From Phyllobates terribilis (lineage: Eukaryota): DNA of 64,000 bases. Numbering within the stretch: position 1 is the stretch's first letter; each line of letters opens with the position of its first letter. A program made the position numbers and the translations under genes. Below, one piece after another: positions 7,241-54,959 of the stretch. The stretch lies in the NCBI RefSeq assembly GCF_046119375.1, contig NW_027362768.1:14570001-14634000 (forward strand), given 5' to 3'. The notes under the pieces are model-generated. The model did no database searches. It saw only the letters and a list, made by a program, of their open reading frames with translations, and was not told the DNA's origin.

Positions 7241-9080
7241 GCTTAGAGGTTCTAAGGTAAGAAGAGGTAGCTAACACTGCTCTTCTTCATGTCTTTACGA
7301 TATAATACTGGAAATACCATGGGTGCTGATGTAAGAAGAGGCTGCTCATACTGCTGTCTACCATGTCTTTCTGTTCCAATACCTGAGATACCAGGAGTGC
7401 CGACATATGAAGAGGATGCTCACACTGCTGTCCTCACTGTCCTTCTGATCCAATTTTGGAAATACCAGTGGTGCTGAAGAAAGTAGAGGCTGCTTGCACC
7501 ACTGTCCACCTTGTCTTTCTTATCTCATACTGGAGATACCAGGGTGCTGAGGTATGAAAAGGCTCTTCACACAGTTTCCCTCCATGTCCTTCTGATCCAT
7601 TTTTGGAAATACCAGTGATGCTAAAGTAAAGTAGAGGCCGCTTACATTGCCCTCCACACTTTCTCTCTGTTGCAATGTGAGAGTGTGAACTGTGATAGCA
7701 GCAGGAGAGCATTAGGACCCTGGAGTTTTGCCTGGCTGAGGTCAGAGCAGGGGCAGATCAGGAGACCCTGTGTGTTCTCAGAGTGTCTGCTGTGTGAGAC
7801 GCTGGATGGGGTGTCTGAGGAGAACTACGAGGATTGAACTGCAACAAGACTCTCTCACTACAAGATTTCCTGTGGGGGTTGAACAAGTGCTGAGCTGGGG
7901 AAAGCTGTGTGGCTCTTTGGAGTTTTTTTTGGAAGTCCATGCTGAGTGACTAGAGACTTTGTGCTGAAGCAGCCAAATGTTGAGTGAGAGTGAAAGAGAC
8001 TGAGGATATCATCTCTGTGACGGAGTGCGTGGTCGGTGGTCTGGAAACAGTGAGTGACTGCGAGAGGAGAGAAGGGGTCCAGTACCATTCACATTGAGAG
8101 GATATTGACAAGCCTTGTGAAGAGTTCTTCCCAGACCTTAACCTGAGGCTACAGGACTAAAGTCCCCGGCGTGTGGGCTCGGCATCGGCCGACAAGACAA
8201 GGAACCTTTGCTGTTTTTGTGAACATTGCTTTTTATTTGGCGCCAAACTTTTCCCAGGACTAGCTGCAGCCACCGCGATTCACAGGCCTGTGATAGACCA
8301 CATCTGAAGTTAACGGTACCGCAACTTTAAGATATCCGGGTATCCCTGTACTAGGGGAATAAAAGCAATTGGTATAGTTTCATTAATTTTTATTGCTAAT
8401 AGTGGTAGGATTGTACTCAGTGTGCCATCTCAGGGATCCATATAGATCACCCTCACTAGATCGACACAGTGTTTGGGTAAAATTGTTCCAGATCTTTAGA
8501 ATAATTCACATAAACTGGAAACCTTGAGATTGGCACATTAATTTCAGCTTTTGCTGATTGTGTGTAGTTAGTAGAGACTAGTGTTGAGCCACCCCCGTAG
8601 TGTTCGAGTTCGGTTCGGTTCGTCGAACACCCGTGTGTTCGCCGAACTGTTCGTCGAACTGTTCGTCGAACACCTTCGAACACCGTTAAAACCAATGGCA
8701 GGCAAACAAAAACACATAGAAACACATAGAAAACACCTTCAAAGGTGTCCAAAAGCTGACAAACTGCTCAGAAGACACAACTAACACATGGAAAAGTGAC
8801 AAGTACATATAGTCATGCGAAAAGAAAAGAGGTGGAGGAGTAAAAGGAGGGGGAGACACAGATATAGGCATGTCATGCCCTTCTAAAATCCAAAAAGTGA
8901 GAAGCCGAGACGGCCAGTCCGCTCCTGCCCGTGCCACCTCCGTGTCGCCGGGTTTGTGCCAGAGCCGCGGTGAACCCTGACGGCCAGCCCCCCTCTCCCA
9001 ATACTGGTGCCTGTCCGCTGGTGGGTCGAGAGAGCCCCCCTGTGGTGGAGGCAGCTCTAAGCTTTTTAATTTAAATTGTC

Positions 9081-9386
9081 CCTCTAATTTGAATGAATAC
9101 ACTTTAAATCCATTTACAAGGATCTATTGGCGGGCAAGTCTCATGCCAGCAGCCGCGTAATTCCAGCTCCAGTAGCGTCCACTAAAGCTGCTGCAGTTAA
9201 AAAGCTTTTATAAGGATCGAGCTCGGCTGTCCAATGCAAGGCATCCTAGTGCCAGTCCCAGCCCCTATGCCTTGGGGTGCCTCCTGATGCTCTTCACTAA
9301 GTATCCCGTGGTCCCGAAGCATTTCCTTTGAAAAAATTAAGTGTCCAAACTACAGGTGGTGTAGCTTGCTTAACAGCCGGGATAAT
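9081..9386 (+). pseudogene. Decayed 18S rRNA fragment (helix 17-18 region into ES6/V4) carried by hAT copy 1
   Basis: gaatgaatacactttaaatcc...gatctattggcgggcaagtctcatgccagcagccgcgtaattccagctcc...gctgcagttaaaaagct...cccgaagcatttcctttgaaaaaatta is collinear with the recalled vertebrate 18S sequence, including the GCCAGCAGCCGC motif. Confidence 0.88.
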
Positions 9387-9460
9387 CCGCTGACTAGCAG
9401 ACACTGCTACTAGGCACAAAGTATTTCCTGGGCTAGATGCAGTTAAAAATTTGTAAGTAG

Positions 9461-11280
9461 ATACTCTCGTTGGATGCTGAGAAAGCATTCCATAGAGTCT
9501 CCTGGCACGCCATATATGATTCTCTTAAAAAGCTTGGGGTAGGGGTCTAGGGGACCCTTTTATAGCCAAAATCACGGCCCTGTATCACAATACGTCACCT
9601 AGGCTGAAGATAAATGGAACTGTAGCACCGAGGGCTCGGTTGCTACAGACGTATTGCACCTCACCCAGAGGTGTGATATCTCACTCTCAGATAAGGATGG
9701 AGTGTGGATCAGGACCCGACACCTGCATGCATTACACCACATTGCCGTGGGGCAGGGCGACCAATATGCCCCTGAGATGGGCACGACAGTCCCTGTCCCT
9801 GGCTGGAGTGGGGGGAGGGAACACTGAGGAAGGGGAACCCTGCAGTGCAGGAGCAGGGAGGAAGCAGTTCCTGGGTGCATTGAGAAGGGAGTATAAAAGG
9901 TGGGCACCATCTTAGTTCAGTGCAGAGAAGTCTGAGCAGAAGTGGCAGGGAGCAGGGGCTCTGCATGAGCTCTGCTCCGGAGGCGGGCCTAGTAACAGAG
10001 GCCCAGGCCTGCAAGAGGGAGAAGGAAGGAAGAGGAGCGGAGAAGGCTCCAGGAACGAGGAATGAAGGGATCCCAGGGGTGCGGACGGGCGAGTCGCCAC
10101 CGCACGCCCGAATCCACCTGCGTGGAGGGGTCAGGCCAAAGGGGGAGACCGGTCCCCGAACTAGTGGAGGCAGGAAACGACCCTCAGCTAGAAACCGGAG
10201 GCTCTGACATTTTATGTGGCGCAGCCCCTTGCTCCACCCGCTAGGAAGGCACCACATAGGGTCAGGGAAACTGGCGCCAAGTTTACCAAGAGGAGGCCCG
10301 AGGCAGCCGGACAGAAGTGTTGGTAAGAAAGGCCAGACAAAGGACACACAAAGGGGGTCCTGTGAAGCGCTCCAAAGTTATCTGGGAGTTGTCTGAGCCC
10401 CTCACCTGGTGAGCACAGTACGACGTGGGAAGCCGTTACCTGCAGACGTGGTCTGGATAATAAGAACTGTGAGTAAAGGCCCTGAACTGCATCACTGACT
10501 CCGTGTCGTTACTGCTGCTGCCCTGCACCATCACCCCCATCCTCCGCATACACTGCCCTGAGGCTATACTCCTCCCGTGGGGAGTTATGCTACGCTCTGC
10601 TGCACCCACAACACCAGCCTTAGCGGTCTGCCCTGTAGCGGCGGTTCACTCTGACCGCAATCCACGGGTGGCGTAGTCGGACATTTAAACATCAAAACCA
10701 CATAAATAGTTCCGCCACTGGTTTGACCGCCCTGAGCCACGGAACCGGATCGCCGCCACGAAGACTACAACCACCAGCATCCACCAAAAAGGGTCCGGCT
10801 CCGGGTGTCCCAAGGCCCAGGGGGTGCGTCAGAACATTTTCATCACCTTTCACAATCACCAATGGGACAAGGCAGGGATGTCCTCTGTCCCCTCTCTTAT
10901 ACATCCTAGTGACGGAGCACCTGCTCTCATCAATTCGCCATAACCCCAATATTAGGTGGATTGAGGTGGGAGGCACCGAGTACAAGTGCTCTCTATTTGC
11001 TGATGATGTCCTAGTATATATCACTCAATCACATATATCCATCCCTGCTGTTATGGCTGAAATAGATCACTTTGTTACATGGTAAAATTTTAAAATCAAT
11101 GCAGCGAAGTCTGAGGCCCTCGATGTCTCCCTCCCTAAATCCATATAGGATTCCATCCAGTCCAACTTTCCCTTTGCCTGGCCCTCACAGGGTATCAAAT
11201 ACTTAGGAATTCCTATTCATAGAGACCTCTCCCATCTATGTTATCTTAATTTTGGGCCCTTTATTGAACAATTCCATACA
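9461..11280 (+). mobile_element. L1/Tx1-clade LINE reverse-transcriptase fragment, split by a solo LTR
   Basis: LSLDAEKAFHRVSW before the LTR. After it: NGTRQGCPLSPLLY, SLFADDVLVY and GIKYL. Confidence 0.9.
9621..10831 (+). mobile_element. Solo LTR (1211 bp), homologous to the LTRs at 48883-52924
   Basis: TGTAGCA...GCGTCA ends; 4-bp TSD GAAC at 9617-9620 and 10832-10835. Removing it rejoins the L1 frame (RLKINGTFSSPF). Confidence 0.9.
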
Positions 11281-11353
11281 GACCACGGTTGGCAAGTTAG
11301 AACTGTAAGATTCACTACGTGAACCACTGGTGTTTTGTGGAAAAGCACATGTA

Positions 11354-12715
11354 CACCGCGTTCCAAATTATTATGCAAAAAGTGTTTAGGAGTGATAAGG
11401 GAAGAATTTGTTTGTTTGTCAGTTAAACTCATTGATGGTGATGTGTGTCAGGGCTCTTTATATCACTGTAAGCAATTGCAGACACCTGTGCTAATTAGTT
11501 TGGCAGGTGTGTCCAATGTAAGGCAAGACTACTTAAGAAGGCTCTCTCACATTATTAAGCAGCCTACATTTTCTGCCAAAATGGGAAAGAAAAAGGATGT
11601 GTCGGCTGCTGAGAAGCAACAAATTGTGGAGTGTTTAGGTCAAGGCATGACTACAATCAACATTGTGCGATGATCAGGATGAAGTGTCTTGGCAATCAAG
11701 AAGTATGTAGCTGATTCACAGTACACACGTGTGCGTGCTGATAAGGGCAAATTGAGGACTCTTTCCTACAGGCAATTACGTCAGGTTGAAACAGCAGCGG
11801 CAAAAAAGCCTTGTCATAGCAGCAGACAAGTTTTTGAAGCTGCTTGTGCCTCCAACGTCCCCCGAACAACAAGATGCAGGGTCCTTCAGAGGTTTGCAGC
11901 TGTGCATATGCCATCCTGTCGACCTCCTCTATCCACTTCACACAAGCAGAAACGGCTCCAGTGGGCCAAACATTACATGAAGACTGATTTCAAAACTGTT
12001 TTGTTCACGGATGAGTGCCGTGCAGCGCTCGATGGTCCAGATGAATGGAGTGGAGGATGGCTGGTTGATGGACACCCCACGCAAACACGGCTACAGCGCT
12101 AACAAGGAGGAGGTGGAGTAATGTTTTGGGCTGGAATCATGGGGAGAGAGATTGTCGGCCCCTTTAGGATCCCTGAAGGCGCTAAAGATGAACTCCATAA
12201 TGTATGTGGATTTTCTCAAACAGCACTTCCTGCCATGGTTCAAGAAGAAGAACCGTGTATTTCACAGCAAGATCATTTTTCTGCATGATAATGCACCATC
12301 TCATGCTGCACATAAAACATCTGCATCTCTGGCTGATATGGGCATAAAAGGGGACAAACTTATGGTGTGACCCCCATGCTCCCCTGACCTCTACCCCATT
12401 CAGAACCTTTGGAGCATCATTAAAAGGAGTGTCTATGATGGCGGGAGGCAGTTCACATCTAAGCAACAGCTCTGGGAGGGTATTCTGTCCTCATGCAAAA
12501 CAATTGAAGCAGAAACCATCCAAAACCTGACAAATTCAATGGACGAGAGAGTTCAGAAGCTCCTTTCGAACAAGGGGTCCTATGTGAAAATGTAACATCA
12601 CCTAGAATAAAGTTTTGAGTTGAAAACTGTTTGATTTCAGTTTCTAACAACCTGCTAATGCTTATAATTTCAAAAATGACCATTTTTTTGGTCTTTATTA
12701 AAATGAAAAGGTTGA
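11354..12715 (+). mobile_element. Tc1 transposon lacking its right end, inside hAT copy 1
   Basis: Starts TA|caccgcgttccaaattattatgcaaa. Transposase pieces MGKKKDVSAAEKQQIV, VLFTDEC, LHDNAPSH and SPDLYPIQNLW are broken by stops and frameshifts. Confidence 0.88.
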
Positions 12716-13052
12716 TCGAAAAGTTTGGGGGATCTAAGAGTGTGGCAACCCAGTAGTCATGATTACTTCGAATTCTGACAATATGAGGGTCATGCTGCAG
12801 GTAGTGCAGCAAGAAGGCACTTATGTGTCTTGCGCATCTCGGAGCCCCAAAATTATTTTCCGGGCTAGATGCAGCTAAAAATTATTTTTAATTTTAAATC
12901 TGGTGAAGCTTATTATAGATGGCCTAATAGGATCAGTGCTGCACACTGCTACAAAGCCCAAATTATTTTGCAGTCAAGATACAGATAAACATGATTAGTA
13001 ATTTGAAAGCTTAAAACGGTTGGTAGGGTGATTTTAACCAATCATCAAGCTT

Positions 13053-16000
13053 TTACTCTCCCCAGGATGACACAGGGGTAGAAAAGTCGTTTCGGATCCA
13101 TGATTTGTTCATCTTTATGAACGTGAGTCTGTCTACATTATCAGTGGAGAGCCGCGTGCGCTTATCTGTCAGCACACCACCAGCAGCGCTGAACACACGT
13201 TCAGACAGAACGCTGGCTGCGGGGCATGACAAGATCTCCAAGGCGTAAGTGGCTAGCTCCGGCCATTTATCCAGATTGGAAGCCCAAAAAGAGCAAGGGT
13301 CCAGTGACACAGTCGTGGCTTCAATGTTTACTTGGAGATACTCCTGTACCATCGTCTCTAGGCGTTGACTATGTGTCAGACTTCTTGTCTCCTGTGGCCT
13401 TGCAAAGGATGGGCTAAAAAAGTGGTGAAATGATTCCGCAAAATTGATGTTACCAGCAGATACTGTGGTTCTGTTACGGTTTGAGTGCTGAACACTTGAC
13501 GGTCCCACGGTTGGCAAGTTGGAACTGTGAGATTCACTACGTGCACCACTGGTATTTTGTGGAAAAGCACATGTAAGATTCTGCAACAGTCTCTGCTGAT
13601 ACTCCTGCATGCGTGCATCCCTTTCTATGGCAGGAATAATTTCTGCAAATTTACTTTTGTACCGGGGATCTAACAGTGTGGCAACCCAGTAGTCAGGATT
13701 ATTTCTAATTCTCACAATTCGAGGGTCATGTTGCAGGTAGTGCAGCAAGAAGGCACTCATGTGTGTTGCGCATCCAGGAGCACCAAGTCCCTGTTGTGTT
13801 GGTGGCGAGGTAGCAATCATGCTTCCTTCCTCTGTCCTCTCCCCCCAACCTCGCACAACAGAAATGTGATCAAGGTCTCCCTCATCTGATGAGTCTTCCA
13901 TCAGTTCGTCCTCCACTTCTTCCTGGGCTCCTGCACCTTCCTCACTAGTTTGGCTGCTACCATGCGCCCTGGTAAAATCATCTCCCCCACCCTCACATGC
14001 CTGCCGCCTTGGTGCTGCCGACCGTCTGGACCTTGCAGATGTTAGCCCTTCCGCATACAACTCCTCCTCCTCTACTTCCTCCACCTCCTCTTGTGCCACC
14101 ACCTGACTCCGAATTCTGTTTAACATGTGCTCCAGCATGTAAATCACCGGAATAGTCATGCTGATAATGGCATCGTCAGCACTAAACATCTTCGTCGCCA
14201 TTTCAAAACTGTGCAGAAGGGTGCATAGGTCCCTGATCTGAGACCACTCCTCCAGCGTGATTTGCCCCACCTCTGAATCTCGTTGGCCCAGGCTATACGT
14301 CAGAACGTATTGCACCAGGGCTTGTCGGTGCTGCCACAGTCGCTGCAACATGTGCAGAGTTGAATTCCACCGGGTAGGCACATCGCATTTTAGCCGGTGA
14401 AGTGGCAGGCCCAACGACTTCTGTAGAGATGTAAGTCGCTGAGCTGCGGGATGCGAACGGCGGAAGTGAGCACACAGCGACCGTGCCCTCTGCAGAAGGC
14501 CATCTAGTCTGGGATAGTGGGCTAAAAATTGCTGGACAACCAGGTTCAACACGTGAGCCATACAAGGCACGTGTGTGACATTGCCCCGGCGAAGGGCCGC
14601 ACCCAGGTTTGCAGCATTGTCGCACACGGCCTTCCCTGGTTTCAGGTCCAGTGGAGACAACCATTCATGAAATTGGTTCTCCAGAGCTGACCACAACTCC
14701 TCAGCTGTGTGACTCACATTTCCCAGACATTTCAATGTAAAAACCGCCTGATGACGTTGAGCCCTACTGCCAGCATAGTAAGGAGGTGTGCAGGATCCCT
14801 TCTGCGCAGTTAGAAAGCTTGTGGCATGACCAGACAGGCTTTGGGTGCAGGTGGAAGACCGAGAGGAGGTTGAGGAGGCAGAAGCAGTGGAGGAAAAATG
14901 ACATAAAGAGGATTGACGCACAACTCGTGGGGACGGCAAGACTTGGACAGCAGCCCCTTGTCCTGCTGTCACCATAGTTACCCAGTGCCCAGTCAGCGAC
15001 ATGTAACGCCCCTGTCCATGCCTACTCGTCCAAGTGTCTGTGGTGAAATGCACCCTGTCACACATAGAGTTTCTCAAAGAAGCGGTGATGTTGTGTGCGA
15101 CATGCTGGTGGAGCGCAGGCACACCTTTCTTTGAGAAGTAGTGCCGACTGGGCATCTGGTACTGGGGCACTGCGACGGACATAAGGTCTCGAAAATCCTC
15201 TGTGTCCACCAGGCGGAAAGGCAGCATTTCTGTAGCCAAGAGCTTGCAGATGGTGAAATTCAACCTCTTAGCTTTCTCATGGCTAGGAGGAAATGGTCTT
15301 TTACTTGTCCACATCTGAGGGACCGAGGGCTGGCTATTGTGCTTAGACGGGGTTGATAAGGGTGTCCCCGGCAAACTGCCGGTCTGTGAGGAAGATGCAG
15401 GCGGACATGTTAGGTTGCCTTGATCCAAAGGTGGTGCTATCGATGTCGGACAGCGCTCAAGACCAGCTGGTGTTACCACCTCCAAAGAAAATGATGACCT
15501 GCCAATCACGCTGGCTGTTGCGGGTAAAGAGGTGGCAGGTCTGCGCCCCAAAACAGGTGTGACTGCTGTCCCCCCAGTCACAGAGGATGAAGAGGCCGCG
15601 GATGCACAAGATATGGCAGACGGTGGTTGGCCCGGCCGGCTAGACCGCATTGTAGCACACTGAGCTTCCCACTGCAACTTATGCTTCATGTCCATGTGCC
15701 GGTTCATGCATGAAGTACTCAAACTATGTATTTTTTGGCCTCTACTTAGCTTTTGCTGACAAATGTTACAGATAACACGAGTTGGGTCATCTTTATCGAT
15801 CTGAAAAAATGCCCAGGCTATGCAAGGCTTAGCACCCATGCGACCTGAAGAGCCACCACGACTTGTGGTGAGAGGCAGAGTTGTGTTTGAGGATGCAGTT
15901 GTTGACGTGCTTCCAGTACTACATCTCTGTCCAGGAAGGCGCAACCTGACCTCGTCGTCACTAGCATCTTCCTCCACCTCCTCTGCTGACCTCATCTCTT

Positions 16001-16733
16001 GGCTGACTGTGGGTTGACAGTAAGTGGGATCTCCGACCTCATCATCATCACCCTGTGCGTTATCACACCCGTCGTCCTCAGAGCCTACCTGTTCCTGCCC
16101 TGACAAAAAACTAAAGTTGTCGCTCCAATCAGGTATTTGAGTCTTATCATCGTCTTCCTCATTGTCTCCACCAACAGGAGTTACAGTTTGGGAATGAGGG
16201 TCTACATTATGGTCAGAACCTTCTGCGTCTGGTCCTGGATCCGACTCATAAAGATTCTGGGCATCAGTGCAGATCATTTCCTCGTCTGGATTCACAGAAG
16301 CGCTGGAGTCGACCTCTGATTCCCAGGCTATAGTATGAGTAAACAGCTCTGCAGACTCAACCATCTGTTCTACCTCATACTCAGACGGGCAGCTGGAGAT
16401 TTGGGAGCTGTGAGGAAGCAAGTGCGATTTGGGTGACACCTTTGAGGACTGGAGTATTTGTGATGTTGAAGTTGATGTGGAGGAGAGCCCACTTAAAGGA
16501 GCACTTGATATCCGTTGAAGCACCTGCTGTTTTTGTGCCTCATCTGGAATTTGTAGCGATTGGCGTGGCCGTAAGAAAGGGATCTTATCACATTGTCCGC
16601 TAAAAGAAGTAGACATTTTAGTTTGGCTGGAAGATGGTCTTTCTTCTGCACCTACCCCACGGACACAACCTTTTTTCCCCTTCCCAACACGCCTATTCCC
16701 CTTTCCACCAGCAGCAGGCCTTTTTCCACTCAT
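13053..16733 (-). CDS. Intact hAT transposase (ZBED/Ac-like), 1226 aa
   Basis: ATG-to-TAA open frame. BED finger (AWAFF...CNIC...MNRHMDMKH), catalytic FTTDTW, CDNAAN and SERVFS, CMAH, DVPTRWNST, and the C-terminal hATC dimerisation region. Confidence 0.95.
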   Translation of the reverse strand: MSGKRPAAGGKGNRRVGKGKKGCVRGVGAEERPSSSQTKMSTSFSGQCDKIPFLRPRQSLQIPDEAQKQQVLQRISSAPLSGLSSTSTSTSQILQSSKVSPKSHLLPHSSQISSCPSEYEVEQMVESAELFTHTIAWESEVDSSASVNPDEEMICTDAQNLYESDPGPDAEGSDHNVDPHSQTVTPVGGDNEEDDDKTQIPDWSDNFSFLSGQEQVGSEDDGCDNAQGDDDEVGDPTYCQPTVSQEMRSAEEVEEDASDDEVRLRLPGQRCSTGSTSTTASSNTTLPLTTSRGGSSGRMGAKPCIAWAFFQIDKDDPTRVICNICQQKLSRGQKIHSLSTSCMNRHMDMKHKLQWEAQCATMRSSRPGQPPSAISCASAASSSSVTGGTAVTPVLGRRPATSLPATASVIGRSSFSLEVVTPAGLERCPTSIAPPLDQGNLTCPPASSSQTGSLPGTPLSTPSKHNSQPSVPQMWTSKRPFPPSHEKAKRLNFTICKLLATEMLPFRLVDTEDFRDLMSVAVPQYQMPSRHYFSKKGVPALHQHVAHNITASLRNSMCDRVHFTTDTWTSRHGQGRYMSLTGHWVTMVTAGQGAAVQVLPSPRVVRQSSLCHFSSTASASSTSSRSSTCTQSLSGHATSFLTAQKGSCTPPYYAGSRAQRHQAVFTLKCLGNVSHTAEELWSALENQFHEWLSPLDLKPGKAVCDNAANLGAALRRGNVTHVPCMAHVLNLVVQQFLAHYPRLDGLLQRARSLCAHFRRSHPAAQRLTSLQKSLGLPLHRLKCDVPTRWNSTLHMLQRLWQHRQALVQYVLTYSLGQRDSEVGQITLEEWSQIRDLCTLLHSFEMATKMFSADDAIISMTIPVIYMLEHMLNRIRSQVVAQEEVEEVEEEELYAEGLTSARSRRSAAPRRQACEGGGDDFTRAHGSSQTSEEGAGAQEEVEDELMEDSSDEGDLDHISVVRGWGERTEEGSMIATSPPTQQGLGAPGCATHMSAFLLHYLQHDPRIVRIRNNPDYWVATLLDPRYKSKFAEIIPAIERDARMQEYQQRLLQNLTCAFPQNTSGARSESHSSNLPTVGPSSVQHSNRNRTTVSAGNINFAESFHHFFSPSFARPQETRSLTHSQRLETMVQEYLQVNIEATTVSLDPCSFWASNLDKWPELATYALEILSCPAASVLSERVFSAAGGVLTDKRTRLSTDNVDRLTFIKMNKSWIRNDFSTPVSSWGE

Positions 16734-16844
16734 TTTGGTGGTTAACTAATTCACAACTCTGGAGTTGTTTGCACAAAAAAACAATGGATGGTAACCGAGC
16801 AGAGCTGAGTGGCCAAACTGTGGTATTAGGCCAAAACTATTGGC

Positions 16845-20758: not shown

Positions 20759-20779
20759 GAGGGCGAGCAGCAGCGGCCC

Positions 20780-27000: not shown

Positions 27001-27653
27001 CATTTGACTTTGCCATAGGGTAAACATATTTCTGTTGGGTTCTCAATACTTTGATTTACAGTATAAATACCTAATTATACACAATGGTCTGTTAGTTGAT
27101 GAATTCTAAGTATCGTGTGGGTCTAAAAATTATTTCTTAGGTAGTTATAGGTAGTGTTGAGCCACCCCCGTAGTGTTCGAGTTCGGTTCGGTTCGTCGAA
27201 CACCCGTGTGTTCGCCGAACTGTTCGTCGAACTGTTCGTCGAACACCTTCGAACACCGTTAAAACCAATGGCAGGCAAACAAAAACACATAGAAACACAT
27301 AGAAAACACCTTCAAAGGTGTCCAAAAGCTGACAAACTGCTCAGAAGACATAACTAACACATGGAAAAGTGACAAGTACATATAGTCATGCGAAAAGAAA
27401 AGAGGTGGAGGAGTAAAAGGAGGGGGAGACACAGATATAGGCATGTCATGCCCTTCTAAAATCCAAAAAGTGAGAAGCCGACACGGCCAGTCCGCTCCTG
27501 CCCGTGCCACCTCCGTGTCGCCGGGTTTGTGCCAGAGCCGCGGTGAACCCTGACGGCCAGCCCCCCTCTCCCAATACTGGTGCCTGTCTGCTGGTGGGTC
27601 GAGCGAGCCCCCCTGTGGTGGAGGCAGCTCTAAGCTTTTTAATTTAAATTGTC

Positions 27654-27959
27654 TCTCTAATTTGAATGAATACACTTTAAATCCATTTACAAGGATCTAT
27701 TGGAGGGCAAGTCTCATGCCAGCAGCCGCGTAATTCCAGCTCCAGTAGTGTCCACTAAAGCTGCTGCAGTTAAAAAGCTTTTATAAGGATCGAGCTCGGC
27801 TGTCCACCGCAAGGCATCCTACTGCCAGTCCCAGCCCCTATGCCTTGGGGTGCCTCCTGATGCTCTTCACTGAGTATCCCGTGGTCCTGAAGCATTTCCT
27901 TTGAAAAAATTAAGTGTCCAAACTACAGGTGGTGTAGCTTGCTTAACAGCCGGGATAAT
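27654..27959 (+). pseudogene. Decayed 18S rRNA fragment in hAT copy 2
   Basis: As at 9081-9386. Here it reads ggatctattggagggcaagtct and ggatcgagctcggctgtccaccgcaaggc, slightly closer to the recalled amphibian 18S. Confidence 0.88.
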
Positions 27960-28032
27960 CCGCTGACTAGCAGACACTGCTACTAGGCACAAAGTGTTTC
28001 CTGGGCTAGATGCAGTTAAAAATTTGTAATTA

Positions 28033-29855
28033 GATACTCTCGTTGGATGCTGAGAAAGCATTCCATAGAGTCTCCTGGCACGCCATATATTATTCTCTTA
28101 AAAAGTTTGGGGTAGGGGTCTAGGGGACCCTTTTATAGCCAAAATCACGGGCCTGTATCGCAATACGTAACCTAGGCTGAAGATAAATGGAACTGTAGCA
28201 CCCTGAGGGCTCGGTTGCTACAGAGGTATTGCACCTCACCCAGAGGTGTGATATCTCACTCTCAGGTAAGGATGGAGTGTGGATCAGGACCCGACACCTG
28301 CATGCATTACACCACATTGCCGTGGGGCAGGGCGACCAATATGCCCCTGAGATGGGCCCGACAGTCCCTGTCCCTGGCTGGAGTGGGGGGAGGGAACACT
28401 GAGGAAGGGGAACCCTGTAGTGCAGGAGCAGGGAGGAAGCAGTTCCTGGGTGCATTGAGAAGGGAGTATAAAAGGTGGGCACCATCTTAGTTCAATGCAG
28501 AGAAGTCTGAGCAGAAGTGACAGGGAGCAGGGGCTCTGCATGAGCTCTGCTCCGGAGGCGGGCCTAGTAACAGAGGCCCAGGCCTGGAAGAGGGAGAAGG
28601 AAGGAAGAGGAGCGGAGAAGGCTCCAGGAACGAGGAACGAAGGGATCCCAGGGGTGCGGACGGGCAAGTCGCCACCGCACGCCCGAATCTACCTGCGTGG
28701 AGGGGTCAGGCCAAAGGGGGAGACCGGTCCCCAAAACTAGTGGAGGCGGGAAACGACCCTCAGCTAGAAACCGGAGGCTGTGACATTTTATGTGGTGCAG
28801 CCCCTCGCTACACCCGCTAGGAAGGCACCACATAGGGTCAGGGAAACTGGCGCCAAGTTTACCAAGAGGAGGCCCGAGGCAGCCGGACAGAAGGGTTGGT
28901 AAGAAAGGCCAGACATAGGACACACAAAGGGGGTCCTGTGAAGCGCTCCAAAGTTATCTGGGAGTTGTCTGAAACCCTCACCTGGTGAGCACAGTACGAC
29001 GTGGGCAGCCGTTACCTGCAGACGTGGTCTGGATAATAAGAACTGTGAGTAAAGGCCCTGGACTGCATCACTGACTCCGTGTCGTTACTGCTGCTGCCCT
29101 GCACCATCACCCCCATCCTCCGCATACACTGCCCTGAGGCTATACTCCTCCCGTGGGGAGTTATGCTACGCTCTGCTGCACCCACAACACCAGCCTCAGC
29201 GGTCTGCCCTGCAGCGGCGGTTCACTCTGACCGCAATCCACGGGTGGCGTAGTCGGACATTTAAACATCAAAACCACATAAATAGTTCCGCCACTTGTTT
29301 GACCGCCCTGAGCCACGGAACCGGGTCGCCGCCACGGAGACTACAACCACCAGCATCCACCAAAAAGGGTCCGGCTCAGGGTGTCCCAAGGCCCAGGGGG
29401 CGCGTCAGAACATTTTCATCACCTTTCATAATCACCAATGGGACAAGGCAGGGATGTCCTCTGTCCCCTCTCTTATACATCCTAGTGACGGAGCACCTGC
29501 TCTCATCAATTCGCCATAACCCCAATATTAGGTGGATTGAGGTGGGAGGCACCGAGTACAAGTGCTGTCTATTTGCTGATGATGTCCTAGTATATATCAC
29601 TCAATCACATATATCCATCCCTGCTGTTATGGCTGAAATAGATCACTTTGTTACATGGTCAAATTTTAAAATCAATGCAGCGAAGTCTGAGGCCCTCGAT
29701 GTCTCTCTCCCCAAATCCATACAGGATTCCATCCAGTCCAACTTTCCCTTTGCCTGGCCCTCACAGGGTATCAAATACTTAAGAATTCCTATTCATAGAG
29801 ACCTCTCCCATCTATGTTATCTTAATTTTGGGCCCTTTATTGAACAACTCCATAC
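28033..29855 (+). mobile_element. L1 RT fragment with solo LTR (28194-29407) in hAT copy 2
   Basis: Same GAAC TSD (28190-28193 and 29408-29411). ORF 29299-29898 contains QGCPLSP, FADD and GIKYL. Confidence 0.9.
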
Positions 29856-29929
29856 AGACCACGGGTGGCAAGTTAGAACTGTAAGATTCACTACGTGAAC
29901 CACTGGTGTTTTGTGGAAAAGCACATGTA

Positions 29930-31290
29930 CACTGTGTTCCAAATTATTATGCAAAAAGTGTTTAGGAGTGATAAGGGAAGAATTTGTTTGTTTGTCAGTT
30001 AAACTCATTGATGGTGATGTGTGTCAGGGCTCTTTATATCACTGTAAGCAATTGCAGACACCTGTGCTAATTAGTTTGGCAGGTGTGTCCAATGAAAGGC
30101 AAGACTACTTAAGAAGGCTGTCCCACATTATTAAGCAGCCTACATTTTCTGCCAAAATGGGAAAGAAAAAGGATGTATCGGCTGCTGAGAACAACAAATT
30201 GTGGAGTGTTTAGGTCAAGGCATGACTACAATTAACATTGTGCGATGATCAGGATGAAGTGTCTTGGCAATCAAGAAGTATGTAGCTGATTCACAGTACA
30301 CACGTGTGCGTGCTGATAAGGGCAAATTGAGGACTCTTTCCTACAGGCAATTACGTCAGGTTAAAAGAGCAGCGGCAAAAAAGCCTTGTCATAGCAGCAG
30401 ATAAGTTTTTGAAGCTGCTGGTGCCTCCAACGTCCCCCGAACAACAAGATGCAGGGTCCTTCAGAGGTTTGCAGCTGTGCATACGCCATCCTGTCGACCT
30501 CCTCTATCCACTTCACACAAGCAGAAACGGCTCCAGTGGGCCAAACATTACATGAAGACTGATTTCAAAACTGTTTTGTTCACGGATGAGTGCCGTGCAA
30601 CGCTCGATGGTCCAGATGGATGGAGTGGAGGATGGCTGGTTGATGGACACCCCACGCAAACACGGCTACAGCGCCAACAAGGAGGAGGTGGAGTAATGTT
30701 TTGGGCTGGAATCATGGGGAGAGAGATTTCGGCCCCTTTCGGATCCCTGAAGGGGTAAAGATGAACTCCATAATGTATGTGGAGTTTCTCAAACAGCACT
30801 TCCTGCCATGGTTCAAGAAGAAGAACCGTGTATTCCACAGCAAGATCATTTTTATGCATGATAATGCACCGTCTCATGCTGCACATAACACATCTGCATC
30901 TCTGGCTGATATGGGCATAAAAAGGGACAAACTTATGGTGTGACCCCCATGCTCCCCTGACCTCTACCCCATTCAGAACCTCTGGAGCATCATCAAAAGG
31001 AGTGTCTATGATGGTGGGAGGCAGTTCACATCTAAGCAACAGCTCTGGGAGGGTATTCTGTCCTCATGCAAAACAATTGAAGCAGAAACCATCCAAAACC
31101 TGACAAATTCAATGGACGAGAGAGTTCAGAAGCTCCTTTCGAACAAGGGGTCCTATGTGCAAATGTAACTTCACCTAGAATAAAGTTTTGAGTTGAAAAC
31201 TGTTTGATTTCAGTTTCTAATAACCTGCTAATGTTTATAATTTCAAAAATGACCATTTTTTTGGTCTTTATTAAAATGAAAAGGTTGATC
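29930..31290 (+). mobile_element. Truncated Tc1 in hAT copy 2
   Basis: TA|cactgtgttccaaattattatgcaaa. ORF pieces contain FTDEC and MHDNAPSH. Confidence 0.87.
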
Positions 31291-31625
31291 GAAGAGTGTG
31301 GGGGATCTAAGAGTGTGGCAACCCAGTAGTCAGGATTACTTCGAATTCTGACAATCTGAGGGTCATGTTGCAGGTAGTGCAGCAAGAAGGCACTCATGTG
31401 TCTTGCGCATCTCGGAGCCCCAAAATTATTTTCCGGGCTAGATGCAGCTAAAAATTATTAATAATTTTAAATCTGGTGGAGCTTAGTATAGATGGCCTAA
31501 TAGAATCAGTACTGCACACTGCTACAAAGCCCAAATTATTTTCCAGCCAAGATACAGATAAACATGATTAGTAATTTGAAAGCTTAAAATGGTTGGTGAG
31601 GTGATTTTAACCAATCATCAAGCTT

Positions 31626-34600
31626 TTACTCTCCCCAGGATGACACAGGGGTAGAAAAGTCATTTCGGATCCATGATTTGTTCATCTTTATAAACGTGAG
31701 TCTGTCTACATTATCAGTGGAGAGCCACGTGCGCTTATCTGTCAGCACACCACCAGCAGCGCTGAACACACGTTCAGACAGAACGCTGGCTGCGGGGCAT
31801 GACAAGATCTCCAAGGCGTAAGTGGCTAGCTCTGGCCATTTATCCAGATTGGAAGCCCAAAAAGAGCAAAGGTCCAGTGACACAGTCATGGCTTCAATGT
31901 TTACTTGGAAATACTCCTGTACCATCGTCTCTAGGCGTTGACTATGTGTCAGACTTCTTGTCTCCTGTGGCCTTGCAAAGGATGGGCTAAAAAAGTGGTG
32001 AAATGATTCCGCAAAATTGATGTTACCAGCAGATACTGTGTTTCTGTTATGGTTTGAGTGCTGAACACTCGACGGTCCCACGGTTGGCAAGTTGGAACTG
32101 TGAGATTCAGTACGTGCACCGCTGGTGTTTTGTGGAAAAGCACATGTAAGATTCTGCAACAGTCTCTGCTGATACTCCTGCATGCGTGCATCCCTTTCTA
32201 TGGCAGGAATATTTTCTGCAAATTTACTTTTGTACCGGGGATCTAACAGTGTGGCAACCCAGTAGTCAGGATTATTTCTAATTATCACAATTCGAGGGTC
32301 ATGTTGCAGGTAGTGCAGCAAAAAGGCACTCATGTGTGTTGGGCATCCAGGAGCACCAAGTCCCTGTTGTGTTGGTGGCGAGGTAACAATCATGCTTCCT
32401 TCCTCTGTCCTCTCCCCCCAACCTCGCACAACAGAAATGTGATCAAGGTCTCCCTCATCTGATGAGTCTTCCATCAGTTCGTCCTCCACTTCTTCCTGGG
32501 CTCCTGCACCTTCCTCACTAGTTTGGCTGCTACCATGCGCCCTGGTAAAACCATCTCCCCCACCCTCACATGCCTGCCGTCTTGGTGCTGCTGACCGTCT
32601 GGACCTTGCAGATGTTAGCCCTTCCGCATACAACTCCTCCTCCTCTACTTCCTCCACCTCCTCTTGTGCCACCACCTGACTCCGAATTCTGTTTAACATG
32701 TGCTCCAGCATGTAAATCACCGGAATAGTCATGCTGATAATGGCATCGTCAGCACTAAACATCTTCGTCGCCATTTCAAAACTGTGCAGAAGGGTGCATA
32801 GGTCCCTGATCTGAGACCACTCCTCCAGCGTGATTTGCCCCACCTCTGGATCTCGTTGGCCCAGGCTATACGTCAGAACGTATTGCACCAGGGCTGCCAC
32901 AGTCGCTGCAACATGTGCAGAGTTGAATTCCACCGAGTAGGCACATCGCATTTTAGCCGGTGAAGTGGCAGGCCCAACGACTTCTGTAGAGATGTAAGTC
33001 GCTGAGCTGCGGGATGCGAACGGCAGAAGTGAGCACACAGCGACCGTGCCCTCTGCAGAAGGCCATCTAGTCCGGGATAGTTGGCTAAAAATTGCTGGAC
33101 AACCAGGTTCAACACGTGAGCCATACAAGGCACGTGTGTGACATTGCCCCGATGAAGGGCCGCACCCAGGTTTGCAGCATTGTCGCACACGGCCTTCCCT
33201 GGTTTCAGGTCCAGTGGAGACAACCATTCATGAAATTGGTGCTCCAGAGCTGACCACAACTCCTCAGCTGTGTGACTCACATTTCCCAGACATTTCAAAG
33301 TAAAAACCGCCTGATGACGTTGAGCCCTACTGCCAGCATAGTAAGGAGGTATGCAGGATCCCTTCTGCGCAGTTAGAAAGCTTGTGGCATGACCAGACAG
33401 GTTTTGGGTGCAGGTGGAGGACCGAGAGGAGGTTGAGGAGGCAAAAGCAGTGGAGGAACTTTGAGATAAAGAGGATTGACGCACAACTTGTGGGGACGGC
33501 AAGACTTGGACAGCAGCCCCTTGTCCTGCTGTCACCATAGTTACCCAGTGCCCAGTCAGCGACATGTAACGCCCCTGTCCATGCCTACTCATCCAAGTGT
33601 CTGTGGTGAAATGCACCCTGTCACACACAGAGTTTCTCAAAGAAGCGGTGATGTTGTGTGCGACATGCTGGTGGAGCGCAGGCACACCTTTCTTTGAGAA
33701 GTATTGCCGACTGGGCATCTGGTACTGGGGCACTGCGACGGACATAAGGTCTCGAAAATCCTCTGTGTCCACCAGGCGGAAAGGCAGCATTTCTGTAGCC
33801 AAGAGCTTGCAGATGGTGAAATTCAACCTCTTAGCTTTCTCATGGCTAGGAGGAAATGGTCTTTTACTTGTCCACATCTGAGGGACCGCGGGCTGGCTAT
33901 TGTGCTTAGACGGGGTTGATAAGGGTGTCCCCGGCAAACTGCCGGTCTGTGAGGAAGATGCAGGCGGACATGTTAGGTTGCCTTGATCCAAAGGTGGTAC
34001 TATCGATGTCGGACAGCGCCCAACACCAGCTGGTGTTACCACCTCCAAAGAAAATGATGACCTGCCAATCACGCTGGCTGTTGCGGGTAAAGAGGTGGCA
34101 GGTCTGCGCCCCAAAACAGGTGTGACTGCTGTCCCCCCAGTCACAGAGGATGAAGAGGATGCGGATGCACAAGATATGGCAGATGGTGGTTGGCCCGGAC
34201 GGCTAGGCCACATTGTAGCACAGTGAGCTTCCCACTGCAACTTATGCTTCATGTCCATGTGCCGGTTCATGCATGAAGTACTCAAACTATGTATTTTTTG
34301 GCCTCTACTTAGCTTTTGCTGACAAATGTTACAGATAACACGAGTTGGGTCATCTTTATCGATCTGAAAAAATGCCCAGGCTATGGAAGGCTTAGCACCC
34401 ATGCGACCTGAAGAGCCACCACGACTTGTGGTGAGAGGCAGAGTTGTGTTTGAGGATGCAGTTGTTGACGTGCTTCCAGTACTACGTCTCTGTCCAGGAA
34501 GGCGCAACCTGACCTCGTCGTCACTAGCATTCTCCTCCACCTCCTCTGCTGACCTCATCTCTTGGCTGACTGTGGGTTGACAGTAAGTGGGATCTCCAAC

Positions 34601-35317
34601 CTCATCATCATCACCCTGTGCGTTATCACACCCGTCGTCCTCAGAGCCAACCTGTTCCTGCCCTGACAAAAAACTAAAGTTGTCGCTCCAATCAGGTATT
34701 TGAGTCTCATCATCATCTTCCTTATTGTCTCCACCAACAGGAGTTACAGTTTGGGAATGAGGGTCTACATTATGGTCAGAACCTTCAGCGTCTGGTCCTG
34801 GATCCGACTCATAAAGATTCTGGGCATCAGTGCAGATCATTTCCTCGTCTGGATTCACAGAAGCACTGGAGCCGACCTCTGATTCCCAGGCTATAGTATG
34901 AGTAAACATCTCTGCAGACTCAACCATCTGTTCTACCTCATACTCAGACGGGCAGCTGGAGATTTGGGAGCTGTGAGGAAGCAAGTGCGATTGGGGTGAC
35001 ACCTTTGAGGACTGGAGTATTTGTGATGTTGAAGTTGATGTGGAGGAGAGCCCACTTAAAGGAACACTTGATATCCGTTGAAGCACCTGCTGTTTTTGTG
35101 CCTCATCTGGAATTTGTAGCGATTGGCGTGGCCGTAAGAAAGGGATCTTATCACATTGTCCGCTAAAAGAAGTAGACATTTTAGTTTGGCTGGAAGATGG
35201 TCTTTCTTCTGCAGATGTTACTGTTGCTTTAACACCTATCCCACGGACACAACCTTTTTTCCCCTTCCCAACACACCTATTCCCCTTTCCACCAGCAGCA
35301 GGCCTTTTTCCACTCAT
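31626..35317 (-). pseudogene. hAT transposase, frameshifted
   Basis: A 10-bp deletion (tgtcggtgct, present at 14323-14332 in copy 1) at ~32895 splits the frame into an 814-aa ORF and a downstream ORF. Confidence 0.92.
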
Positions 35318-35429
35318 TTTGGTGGTTAACTAATTCACAACTCTGGAGTTGTTTGCACAAAAAAACAATGGATGGGAACCGAGTAGAGCTGAGTGGCCAA
35401 ACTGTGGTATTAGGCCAAAACTATTGGCT

Positions 35430-36930
35430 GGGTTAGATGCAGAAAAAAATTATATTCAATTTGCAACCTGATGGAGGTCAGTATAGATGGACTAATAGAA
35501 CAAGTCCCACACACTGCTAGAAGTCCAAATATTTTTTCAGAGGTAGATGCAGAAAAAAATTATATTCAGTTTGCAACCTGATGGAGGTCAGTATAGAGGG
35601 ACTAATAGACCAAGTCCCACACACTGCTAGAAGCCCAAATATTTTTTCAGAGCTAGATGCAGAAAAAAATTGTATTCAATTTGCAACCTGATGGAGGTCA
35701 GTATAGATTGACTAATAGAACAAGTCCCACACACAGCTAGAAGCCCAAATATTTTTTCAGAGGTAGATGCAGAAAAAAATTATATTCAGTTTGCAACCTG
35801 ATGGAGGTCAGTATAGATGGACTAGTAGAACAAGTCCCACACACTGCTAGAAGGACAAATATTTTTTCAGAGCTAGATGGAGAAAAAAATTATTTTCAAT
35901 TTGCAACCAGATGGAGGTCAGTATAGATGGACTAATAGAACAAGTCCCAAACACTGCTAGAAGGCCAAATATTTTTTCAGAGCTAGATGCAGACAAAAAA
36001 TTATTTTTAATTTGCAACCTGATGGAGGTCAGTATAGATGGACTAATAGAACAAGTCCCACACACTGCTAGAAGGCCAAATATTTTTTCAGAGCTAGATG
36101 CAGATAAAAATTATTTTTAATTTGCAACCTGATGGAGGTCAGTATAGATGGACTAATAGAACAAGTCCCACACACTGCTAGAAGGCCAAATATTTTTTCA
36201 GAGCTAGATGCATATAAAAATTATTTTTAATTTGCAACCTGATGGAGGTCAGTATAGATGGACTAATAGAACAAGTCCCACACACTGCTAGAAGCCCAAA
36301 TATTTTTTCAGAGCTAGATGCAGATAAAAATTATTTTTAATTTGCAACCTGATGGAGGTCAGTATAGATGGACTAATAGAACAAGTCCCATACACTGCTA
36401 GAAGGCCAAATATTTTTTCAGAGCTAGATGCAGATAAAAAATATTTTTAATTTGCAACCTGATGGAGGTCAGTATAGATGGACTAATAGAACAAGTCCCA
36501 TACACTGCTAGAAGGCCAAATATTTTTTCAGAGCTAGATGCAGACAAAAAAATATTTTTAATTTGCAACCTGATGGAGGTCAGTATAGATGGACTAATAG
36601 ACCAAGTCCCACACACTGCTAGAAGGCCAAATATTTTTTCAGAGCTAGATGCAGACAAAAAAATATTTTTAATTTGCAACCTGATGGAGGTCAGTATAGA
36701 TCGACTAATAGAACAAGTCCCACACACTGCTAGAAGCCCAAATATTTTTTCAGAGCTAGATGCAGACAAAAAATTAATTTGAATTTGCAACCTGATGGAG
36801 GTCAGTATAGATGGACTAGTAGAACAAGTCCCACACACTGCTAGAAGGACAAATATTTTTTCAGATCTAGATGCAGAAAAAAATTATATTCAATTTGCAA
36901 CCTTATGGAGGTCAGTATAGATGGACTAAT
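35430..36930. repeat. 110/111-bp tandem array (~14 units) in hAT copy 2
   Basis: gcaacc recurs from 35463 to 36897 at 110 or 111 bp spacing. Confidence 0.96.
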
Positions 36931-39002
36931 AGAATAGTGCTATGCCCAAAAGGTTTTACTTCACTAGGTGCAGTAAAAAAATTGGTATTCTATACACAGG
37001 TGGTGTAGCTTGCAACACAGATAGGCTACTCCACTGACTAACATACTCTGCAATAGGCCAAAAAGGATTAGATTTGCTAGATTCAGCCAAATGCTGTGAA
37101 AAAAACTTGCACAGCACTGGCACAGACCTGCCTGGCAAAAACTGATAGGAACTGATGTAATTTAGTCCTGAAAAGGACTGCAATTACAATTAGTCTTTAC
37201 TCCCACAACCTATCTATTTAAGAGCACAGACCAGCCTGATAAAAGTCGTAGGAAATGCTGTAACCTAGTCCTTAAAAGGACTGCAATCACAACTATTCCC
37301 TACTCCCAAGCTATCTGTAGATTTGTGCGAAAATTGGCTTGAAATTAACAAGGTATAGCGCACACAGCAACAGCGGTGCCGTCTAACAAGCAGCTGCAGC
37401 AGTGAGAAAATGGTGGCGACGGGGAAAATGGCTGGGTCTTATAGGGCAAGGACATGTGACATACACTGCCAATGACACATGCCCTTGCTTGTGTGAAAAA
37501 AAGCACTTCGCTCCGTGTGTGCGCTGCTGATAGGCTGACAGATTGCACCTCCCCACTGTAAATGCGGGAAAGAGAAAAAAAAATGGAGATCTTCATTATT
37601 CCTGCAGAGATCCATCCCCTGCCCCTCCCCCCGCCCCGCTGTACACTCAAACTGCGTATTAACATTAATTTTCATCATTACTGAGAAAAAATCCAGTTAT
37701 GATTTTGGTGCACGAACAGTTATCGAACATAACCTCGAACAGCCGAATTTTTCTCAAATCGTTCGTGTTCGCCGAACGGCTCGAACACCGCTCAAAACAG
37801 CTCGAATTTGAGATTGGCGAACAGTTCGAGTCGAACAACGCTCAACTCTAGTTATAAGGCAGAATGTTAATAGTATACTTCCCAAGGAATATTTAAATTT
37901 TACTTAAGCTGTTAAAATTTCACAAATACAGTATACAAAGGGGAAGTTTAACTGTCACTCTACAATTTACATTTTTTTTTAGTTTTAGTAACAAAATATC
38001 GTCTTGCTTCTATTAAAGGAATCCTAAAATATAGCTAATTAAAATATATGTTTTGTAAATCTAGTGTTGTTTAGAAAAAATGTGATATAGTAGACATATT
38101 TACAGCTAACAATGTTTTAAATAGCTCCTTGGTGACCATGTTAAATTGTGTACCAGGATAGACCAGGATAGACCCTCTAACAATTTCATGCCATTATATA
38201 CATTGACTTTATTCACTTCTATACATTTATGTCTGTTTCTATTACAGGTGTGACTATCATGAAGCACCAATACACCTCTGTGTTCCCCTATTTTTAATTT
38301 TGCTGTCCTCTTTTGCTGTGGGGAGCTGTTGAGCCCCCTAAAGCACTAGGGTCCATGTGTGACTATACCCTTTACACTCCTCATAGTTACACCTCTATAT
38401 GTAAATGAACAGACAATTTGCAATTAAAAATGGATAGTGTGTTGTGTTGTAGCTACAGTAATGAGGAATGGTAAAGCTATACAAAGTATACAGACCATCA
38501 TCTCAACAACCACGTTTTAGCAGAGTTGACTTTCTCATTAACAAAGTGTTTATTGCCTGCAATAAAAGAGAAAATTTGTTTCATTTTGAGCTTGATATTA
38601 TCATTCAACCCCTTTCTTGTCCGTGACTCCATCCCTTCTCGTTAGAGCACAGCTGCTTGATGTACAAATGAGAAATGAAGAAGCTTTTAGCAGAAGCGAA
38701 GGTTCATAAGAGACTAAAAAGTTCAGTGCAACCTTGAAACAAGTTTAGATGAGGGAAGGCAAACAATGTGGTCATCCATTTGGTAGAACGATTAACACTG
38801 TGAGTTCGTAATGCAAGTTTCCAAAAAATTGAATAAATGAATAAAACATAATTGTGATATTGAGCATTTGTATGGCATTTGTTGTAGGATAACCAGTAAA
38901 TAGAATAGCAAGTGACAGAACAACAGTACCTGTTTCATACCATGTACTGTAGCTCTTTTTAATATGAATAGAAGGAGAGGGCAGAGTGGAGGGTGCACTT
39001 AA

Positions 39003-54957: not shown

Positions 54958-54959
54958 TA

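Follow-up and report, generated by a model that had tools for sequence, protein, structure and literature searches.

The stretch of DNA analysed here (64,000 nucleotides from the frog Phyllobates terribilis, contig NW_027362768.1, positions 14,570,001 to 14,634,000 of the forward strand; referred to below as the window) holds two copies of an 11-kb composite transposon that belongs to the hAT superfamily. An initial annotation, made from the letters of the window, had described an autonomous hAT element moving as one unit with passengers from several unrelated sources. The two copies, their target site duplications (TSDs) and the element that hosts copy 1 are as follows, in coordinates of the window.

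7676 to 25927, plus strand: host Gypsy/Ty3-type long terminal repeat (LTR) element, with the 4-bp TSD GCAA.
8571 to 8578: left 8-bp TSD of copy 1, GTAGAGAC, which fits the Ac-type pattern nTnnnnAn.
8579 to 19592, minus strand as set by the transposase: composite hAT copy 1, 11,014 bp, from self-comparison of the window.
19593 to 19600: right TSD of copy 1, GTAGAGAC.
25776 to 25783: empty site for copy 1, a single GTAGAGAC in the host Gypsy 3' LTR.
27144 to 27151: left TSD of copy 2, GTTATAGG.
27152 to 37850, minus strand as set by the transposase: composite hAT copy 2, 10,699 bp, from self-comparison of the window.
37851 to 37858: right TSD of copy 2, GTTATAAG.

The two copies lie in the same orientation and are collinear from end to end, and the boundaries that the initial annotation gave for them proved exact when the 64-kb window was compared with itself. 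Leaving the satellite arrays aside, the alignment of the two copies has 9,175 sites, of which 199 (2.17%) differ, and seven small indels. Both are bounded by the same imperfect terminal inverted repeats of 11 bp (TIRs; two mismatches in copy 1, one in copy 2), a length inside the 10-25 bp range given for hATs (PMC8961557), and, as had been claimed, by different 8-bp flanks. The two flanks of copy 1 agree at 8/8 positions and those of copy 2 at 7/8, matches that would arise by chance with probabilities of about 1.5e-5 and 4e-4, respectively. Both target sites also conform to nTnnnnAn, the target consensus of the Ac family (PMC10368747, PMC8961557), which would happen by chance with a probability of about 0.005; in copy 2, the left TSD carries a G at position 7. 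The observation of two collinear hAT copies is real and far beyond chance. The element is probably a member of the Ac family, an assignment made from the Hermes match described below and the TSD consensus. At 11 kb the composite exceeds the typical hAT length of 2.5-5 kb, a range meant descriptively (PMC8961557), as does hAT-10 of Xenopus.

Since the copies are close together in direct orientation and the assembly is gapped, a segmental or tandem duplication, or an assembly artefact, might have copied a region that held a hAT with nested repeats. The similarity ends at the TIRs on both sides, however: when the 500-bp flanks were compared, nothing was common to them except chance matches of 12 and 26 columns. 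Moreover, each copy has its own TSD, and the site into which copy 1 inserted is preserved in unoccupied form, as GTAGAGAC occurs three times in the window, on both sides of copy 1 and at the corresponding position of the host 3' LTR. The copies have also acquired private stops and indels along their whole length, in addition to the 2.2% divergence. Because the flanks are unrelated, the TSDs differ and the empty site of copy 1 survives, we regard a duplication or misassembly as barely conceivable. The two host sites had been described as unrelated, copy 1 in an LTR and copy 2 in apparently non-repetitive DNA. The former holds, whereas the left flank of copy 2 is partly a 74-bp tandem repeat.

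Each copy consists of two hAT ends, a transposase gene with an adjoining satellite array, and a cargo of about 3.9 kb (3,852 aligned sites) between the ends. In the order of copy 1, with copy 2 in brackets, the parts are the following.

8579 to 8889: left end (the element's 3' end), with an imperfect 11-bp TIR and a subterminal region rich in TTCG/CGAA.
8890 to 9061 (27463 to 27634): GC-rich segment of 172 bp, bounds approximate, adjoining the 18S piece.
9062 to 9349 (27635 to 27922), plus strand in copy 1: decayed 18S ribosomal RNA (rRNA) fragment, Rfam RF01960.
9331 to 9455, plus strand: degenerate satellite-like unit, 71% identical to 18718-18833, overlapping the end of the 18S fragment at AAAAAATT.
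9456 to 9620 (28029 to 28193), plus strand in copy 1: L1 reverse transcriptase (RT) fragment, first part.
9621 to 10831 (28194 to 29407), plus strand in copy 1: solo LTR, TG...CA, with the 4-bp TSD GAAC.
10832 to 11282 (29408 to 29858), plus strand in copy 1: L1 RT fragment, second part.
11283 to 11353 (29859 to 29929), minus strand in copy 1: sister-hAT transposase fragment A, 94% identical to 13505-13575.
11354 to 12727 (29930 to 31300), plus strand in copy 1: Tc1-type element, of which 1,374 bp are left in copy 1.
12728 to 12850 (31301 to 31423), minus strand in copy 1: sister-hAT transposase fragment B, 89% identical to 13664-13786.
12838 to 13011, plus strand: degenerate satellite units, 77% identical to the array, joined to fragment B by an imperfect microhomology.
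13053 to 16733 (31626 to 35317), minus strand: hAT transposase, intronless and 1,226 amino acids long in copy 1, with a 10-bp frameshifting deletion near 32892 in copy 2.
16850 to 18675 (35434 to 36934), plus strand in copy 1: 110-bp satellite found by Tandem Repeats Finder (TRF), 16.6 units with higher-order blocks in copy 1, 13.6 units in copy 2.
18676 to 19592: right arm (5' end), with a degenerate satellite unit, a 103-bp repeat pair, subterminal repeats and the TIR.

The kinds of cargo named in the initial annotation were borne out: the 18S fragment by Rfam (RF01960, 55-67 bits against a gathering threshold of 50, at model positions of about 477-790), the L1 RT by Pfam and tblastn, the Tc1 by a Pfam match below the cut-off together with its translation, and the satellite by TRF. 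The GC-rich segment next to the 18S piece gave no credible match in an Rfam search, for which its copy 2 equivalent was used; our guess is that it is ribosomal DNA (rDNA) spacer. The cargo order is the same in both copies, as had been described, but in neither does the solo LTR (1,211 bp in copy 1, about 70% like the LTRs at 48883-52924) follow the L1 fragment; rather, it splits it, with the RT motifs carrying on across the LTR. The first part of the L1 fragment has a frameshift common to both copies, and the second part lacks a 3' end and poly(A) and carries two private stops in copy 1 and none in copy 2. Direct retrotransposition of L1 into the element is disfavoured, as only an internal 616-bp RT piece is present, without a tail or TSD; the piece may be a remnant trimmed after such an event. 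Satellite had been placed at one site only, and the degenerate units at 9331-9455 and 12838-13011 had been overlooked.

The Tc1 element, earlier listed as a truncated Tc1, sits within a piece of another hAT transposase, represented by fragments A and B, which had also escaped notice. It starts at the TA in which fragment A ends and which served as its target, and the resident transposase gene has a TA at the same place (13574-13575). Its left TIR is present and its right end is lost, the deletion having also taken 88 bp of the surrounding hAT transposase piece. Its spacing of 37 residues from the second D to the E position (DD37E) suggests that it is TRT-like, TRT being a Tc1-type family with DD37E, a TA target, TIRs at both ends and a length of about 1.56 kb (PMC5630946); it is set beside TRT by this spacing. 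A Gln occupies the position of the catalytic Glu, and this change, a Trp-to-stop change and a micro-inversion are common to both copies. The micro-inversion (about 11663-11700 and about 30238-30275) is a handy marker for tracing the cargo.

Fragment A (71 bp) and fragment B (123 bp) differ from the resident transposase by 5.6% and 10.6%. These differences show a synonymous excess (ratio of nonsynonymous to synonymous differences per site, pN/pS, of 0.28-0.32; p=0.011-0.027, uncorrected), and residues R990 and S1011 of fragment B match three sister proteins and not the resident (R990 matches two of the three). On both grounds the fragments come from another functional lineage; they derive from a sister lineage or from an older stage of the resident lineage.

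No fragment of a host protein-coding gene was found by Pfam in the cargo open reading frames (ORFs) that were scanned, RT and Tc1 domains being the only matches. When 65 hAT-like proteins were compared with the window by tblastn, none read through into cargo outside fragment B, the exception being the host-Gypsy and Penelope domains of three chimeric proteins. The cargo junctions were also sought in contigs of prokaryotic genomes, where 41 pattern matches were obtained and none was confirmed. Every passenger is dead, immobile on its own and without evident function. The cargo is nested, not linear: it includes two true insertions (the LTR and the Tc1), one reduction to a solo LTR and at least one deletion, and its assembly took about six or more events, so the earlier wording "assembled once" is not supported.

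The transposase of copy 1 is open throughout its 1,226 codons (16733 to 13053). It has a BED zinc finger (C322/C325/H346/H351; PF02892, E=4e-10), the residues D566, D705 and E1178, a C724xxH727 motif, R788-W789 and a C-terminal dimerisation domain (PF05699, E=2e-14). In the match to Hermes (E=3e-19) the second D, CxxH, RW and E are all aligned; D566, which we take to be the first catalytic D of the DDE triad, is present in 42 of 44 homologues. At all 12 of the zinc-finger and catalytic positions examined, copy 1 has the majority residue of these 44 proteins. It differs at 12 of the 150 columns that are invariant in ten distant homologues, and 11 of these departures are common to copy 2, with the remaining one falling within the deletion of copy 2. 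The claim of a transposase in both copies must be restricted, as that of copy 1 is intact and that of copy 2 is frameshifted. Likewise, the predicted autonomy amounts to coding capacity, and this in copy 1 and the common ancestor only. A 21-bp in-frame indel lies near the transposase N-terminus (16648 and 35212).

Relatives of the transposase are mostly anuran proteins annotated as ZBED4-like or ZBED6-like. The closest named fragments, at 74-82% identity, are gene models of Ranitomeya imitator and Phyllobates terribilis, and relatives at 72-89% identity were also found. In three named frog gene models (P0002-P0004), pieces of this hAT family are spliced to host or retroelement coding sequence; these models are probably annotation chimeras, and possibly exonisation.

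The cargo had been called identical in the two copies. It differs at 91 of 3,852 sites (2.36%, or 2.4% when rounded), compared with 38 of 1,652 (2.30%) for the other non-coding DNA and 70 of 3,671 (1.91%) for the ORF (cargo versus ORF, Fisher p=0.18). Since all three have diverged alike, the whole composite was copied together; with the same cargo and the same ends at unrelated sites, this agrees with the initial annotation that a hAT element moved as a unit. Divergence is mildly uneven along the composite (chi-square p=0.018 for the 10 of 14 segments longer than 150 bp), mainly through the segment adjoining the stop codon and the left end, which is conserved. The terminal 311 bp on the left have one difference between the copies against about seven expected (p=0.009, uncorrected); the right end has no comparable conservation. 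At the two ends TTCG/CGAA, a motif chosen by eye, reaches densities of 10.7 and 6.5 per 100 bp, compared with 0.22 in the ORF, and these putative subterminal repeats are asymmetric between the ends.

The notion that the cargo is functional and selected, with the LTR acting as promoter or terminator or the 18S and transposon pieces as small-RNA decoys, would account for its retention in both copies and for the completeness of the LTR. However, the cargo divergence equals the synonymous divergence of the transposase (pS 2.5%, p=0.81), and both copies have gained private stops and frameshifts. We therefore consider selected cargo very unlikely; the cargo behaves as neutral baggage. In the transposase, pN (1.7%) is lower than pS (one-sided p=0.042), and 70 substitutions are seen in the ORF against 93 expected (p=0.034). 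Three frame or stop lesions are common to both copies in the cargo (about 550 codons), whereas the transposase, with 1,226 codons, has no such lesion (p=0.03). Such shared lesions beside a lesion-free transposase suggest that the ancestor of the two copies was a working element that already carried decayed cargo.

The satellite arrays have turned over separately: exact higher-order blocks are present in copy 1, and at unit positions 28 and 52 the majority variants of copy 2 are private to it. The array of copy 1, which begins 117 bp upstream of the transposase ATG, has five singleton variants in 1,760 bp, compared with 14 in 1,430 bp for copy 2 (p=0.018); it is thus much the more uniform of the two, which suggests that it is also the younger. 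As copy 1 combines few satellite singletons with 17 derived residues (copy 2 has 23), it looks young, and yet not like a fresh daughter of copy 2. It is also younger than its host, because the copies differ by 2.2% and the LTRs of the host Gypsy by 4.8%. At a rate borrowed from Xenopus, these values translate into rough dates of about 3.5 million years for the split of the copies and about 8 million years for the Gypsy insertion.

Local hopping is known for hATs, and the two copies are adjacent and in the same orientation. A single element might thus have gathered its nested insertions in place and made one short-range replicative jump, giving a pair and no family. The derived changes found on both branches (the 17 and 23 residues mentioned above) are consistent with such a history, as is the weakness of the selection tests between the copies. 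It would require, however, that six or more in-place events left a 3.7-kb ORF without stops or frameshifts, and under neutral decay the ORF would stay open with a probability of only about 0.05 per copy (0.28 x 0.19). In addition, a Tc1 inside a sister transposase piece cannot come from simple insertion into the copy, and the copy 1 array is more homogeneous than that of a frozen daughter would be. We judge a one-off local hop to be unlikely.

Our preferred explanation, which we think quite probable, is that an Ac-family hAT took up about 4 kb of dead DNA stepwise in its 3' arm while its transposase stayed intact, and then transposed with all of it. It draws on what is seen directly: hAT ends with TSDs, an empty site, catalytic residues that are intact, and two unrelated sites that hold the same cargo. 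An LTR element entered the L1 piece and was reduced to a solo LTR. A Tc1 inserted at a TA within a related hAT transposase, of which 88 bp were then lost together with the right end of the Tc1. Template switching in the course of gap repair may have joined the blocks at the DNA level in the 3' arm; alternatively, microhomology-mediated deletion may have fused them with sister elements that were nested or adjacent. Such joining would often have taken place at satellite-like units, and two cargo junctions lie in units of this kind, with short matches to both parents. The LTR and Tc1 insertions might have preceded or followed uptake, as the two copies fit either order. TIRs and subterminal repeats are all that a hAT transposase needs (PMC10368747), and the efficiency of Tol2 is not reduced by a load of 10-11 kb (PMC8151067); interior cargo therefore rides along.

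The composite might also have been assembled in another way that would equally allow it to move as a unit: two neighbouring hATs may have fused into a macrotransposon, in which an older sister supplied the left end together with the decayed hAT-like pieces and the resident supplied the transposase and right end, with the inner ends deleted and the DNA between them carried off. Fragment A, fragment B and the satellite-like units do lie in whole-element order with internal deletions and in the orientation of the resident, a pair model of this kind has been published for plant Pack-TYPE elements (PMC8903248), and the compound Ds-l4-483 of maize provides a precedent (PMC3260210). However, no internal TIR was found with up to one mismatch allowed, and the satellite-like units may be native to both arms. 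Fusion is thus a possible, if doubtful, route to the composite. A scan for inverted repeats showed nothing beyond the element ends among the 25 pairs listed out of 729.

In the strict sense, a single move of the full composite is proven, since the element may have occupied the first site before it took up the cargo. The cargo lesions shared beside an intact ORF, the lower pN and the uniform satellite of copy 1 suggest a longer-lived cargo-bearing lineage, and it seems somewhat probable that this lineage has transposed more often than the two copies show. Whether there exists in poison-frog-like genomes a multicopy, recently active, self-mobilising pack-hAT family, whose master holds the nested L1, LTR, Tc1, sister-hAT and 18S debris and has multiplied it genome-wide, is in our view evenly balanced.

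Several results weigh against stepwise capture by an active, cargo-bearing lineage: only two copies were counted, 7.6 kb apart in one 64-kb window, so that the initial claim that the element "amplifies" its passengers is unsupported as worded; the direct comparison of pN with pS between the copies is not significant (ratio 0.68, p=0.16); all five measures of a simulation that took sequence context into account fell short of significance (p=0.06-0.24); a branch test of changes at conserved columns (1/17 in copy 1 and 7/23 in copy 2, with 7/47 changes left unpolarised) gave p=0.11; and the p-values are uncorrected with many tests run. Satellite arrays, moreover, are able to homogenise in place or in assembly. 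At the junctions, the join between Tc1 and fragment B showed no clear microhomology. Finally, an ORF of 281 amino acids that runs across the LTR, L1 and fragment A (29053-29898) gave 126 matches among 606 candidates, none of those listed covering the junction; the 120 listed are RT proteins, at up to 57% identity and in the RT domain only. This search is uninformative, as spurious ORFs of such a kind are seldom annotated.

The surroundings are also rich in repeats. The host Gypsy, which is interrupted by copy 1 in its 5' LTR and retains remains of a zinc knuckle, RT, RNase H and integrase, has LTRs that differ at 50 of 1,041 sites. It interrupts in turn the 74-bp tandem repeat (7257-7657 and 25928-26080), so that the locus is nested three deep and the left flank of copy 2 is unique DNA in part only. 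At 40577-43508 lies a near-perfect palindrome of 2.9 kb (93%) with a weak central GIY-YIG match (Pfam E=0.009, below the cut-off), which has the appearance of an inverted, tail-to-tail Penelope-like element. The minus-strand LTR element at 48883-52924 is short and young, with 1.24-kb LTRs that are 99.4% identical, the TSD ATAG and a 1.55-kb interior that carries a 51-bp repeat and has no Pfam match; a further fragment lies at 57359-57612. An element at about 39000-40277, whose matching inverted ends start with TTAACCCCTT as read by eye, resembles a TTAA-type miniature inverted-repeat transposable element. Two decayed copies of a Tc1 family other than that of the passenger (4007-5496 and about 54955-56518) and a G-rich 30-bp minisatellite of 24 units (46633-47357) were also noted. 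The runs of N in the window, 54460-54612 and 60078-60286, are both outside the composite elements.

The composite is a vertebrate hAT that has retained its transposase and transports 4 kb of cargo from several sources; the main animal survey (PMC8277862) was designed in such a way that it would miss elements of this class. Its cargo includes no host protein-coding gene. In the case of a large family, repeat annotation would break every copy up into L1, LTR, Tc1, rRNA, satellite and hAT matches and so count false young insertions. Some of what look like recent bursts of L1, LTR and Tc1 elements in these giant genomes, and some of their scattered rDNA fragments, would then reflect hitch-hiking and not activity of the elements concerned. 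With hATs reported to make up 3.9% of the Dendrobates tinctorius assembly (PMC11152451) and given as 1.1 Gb in Ranitomeya imitator (PMC12822217), the effect on annotation could be measurable. Copies with partial cargo would reveal the order of capture and test template-switching models, and an intact amphibian hAT of 1,226 amino acids with a natural 11-kb load is a candidate vector.

Among known systems, one close in kind is Pack-hAT-N8_XT of Xenopus, a multicopy hAT with 291 bp of cargo from one host gene (the 5' untranslated region of CAPSL; PMC8277862). Like the composite, it is a frog hAT with foreign DNA whose transposed copies have distinct TSDs; in contrast, the composite holds about 4 kb of multi-source repeat cargo together with its own transposase, and no transposase-bearing case was found in those parts of that paper, by Tan et al. 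(2021), that concern us here. The survey reported a median cargo of 224 bp, proposed template switching and defined multicopy Pack-TIRs by 100-5,000 bp of foreign DNA between both ends and copies with distinct TSDs (PMC8277862). The composite has about 3.9 kb of foreign DNA in one TIR element, with distinct TSDs in both of the copies in the window. As the pipeline of Tan et al. required a unique parental copy of at least 90% identity without flanking transposable elements (PMC8277862), cargo made of repeats would be missed by it. The Ds2 and Ds-l4 elements of maize, including the compound Ds-l4-483, reach 12.7-24 kb, and some sets moved after capture (PMC3260210). They resemble the composite in that hAT ends surround filler, LTR retroelements, other DNA transposons and a truncated self-copy, and differ from it in being plant elements that are non-autonomous, with filler in place of transposase. 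Tol2 of medaka is an autonomous vertebrate hAT with a passenger, the internal Angel element; unlike the composite it is 4.7 kb long, with one small passenger type and a spliced transposase (PMC8151067). As for hAT-10 of Xenopus tropicalis, its BED transposase of 1,033 amino acids and consensus coordinates that run to at least 9,323 show that a long BED transposase and large non-coding arms were already known; as no description of the arm content was found in the portions of PMC9250109 bearing on this element, the comparison is by size and architecture alone.

The anuran ZBED4-like and ZBED6-like proteins at NCBI share the BED plus hAT architecture, at 33-50% identity over the core, and were compared at the protein level. 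ToxhAT/ToxTA, a 14-kb class II element with cargo, was considered as a hAT precedent and rejected, since the target sequence that it duplicates is TA and it is now placed in Tc1/mariner (PMC12506042). The novelty suggested in the initial annotation has to be narrowed, as publications already describe a multicopy Pack-hAT in Xenopus (PMC8277862) and a hAT family in a frog whose consensus is at least 9.3 kb long (PMC9250109). What stands is the combination: searches of the open-access literature, which did not extend to Repbase and Dfam, found no hAT of a vertebrate that combines an intact transposase with cargo from several sources, and no such element appeared in the passages found in two frog genome papers (PMC11152451, PMC12822217). 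Plant Pack-TYPE elements are also TIR elements that carry and multiply captured DNA; by definition they are non-autonomous and bear host coding fragments (PMC8903248), neither of which applies to the composite. The composite thus works like a multicopy Pack-TIR while falling outside the plant Pack-TYPE definition. Transposons that carry cargo were known from plants and clawed frogs, and the composite, each of whose ingredients has a precedent, is a variant of these that is self-powered.

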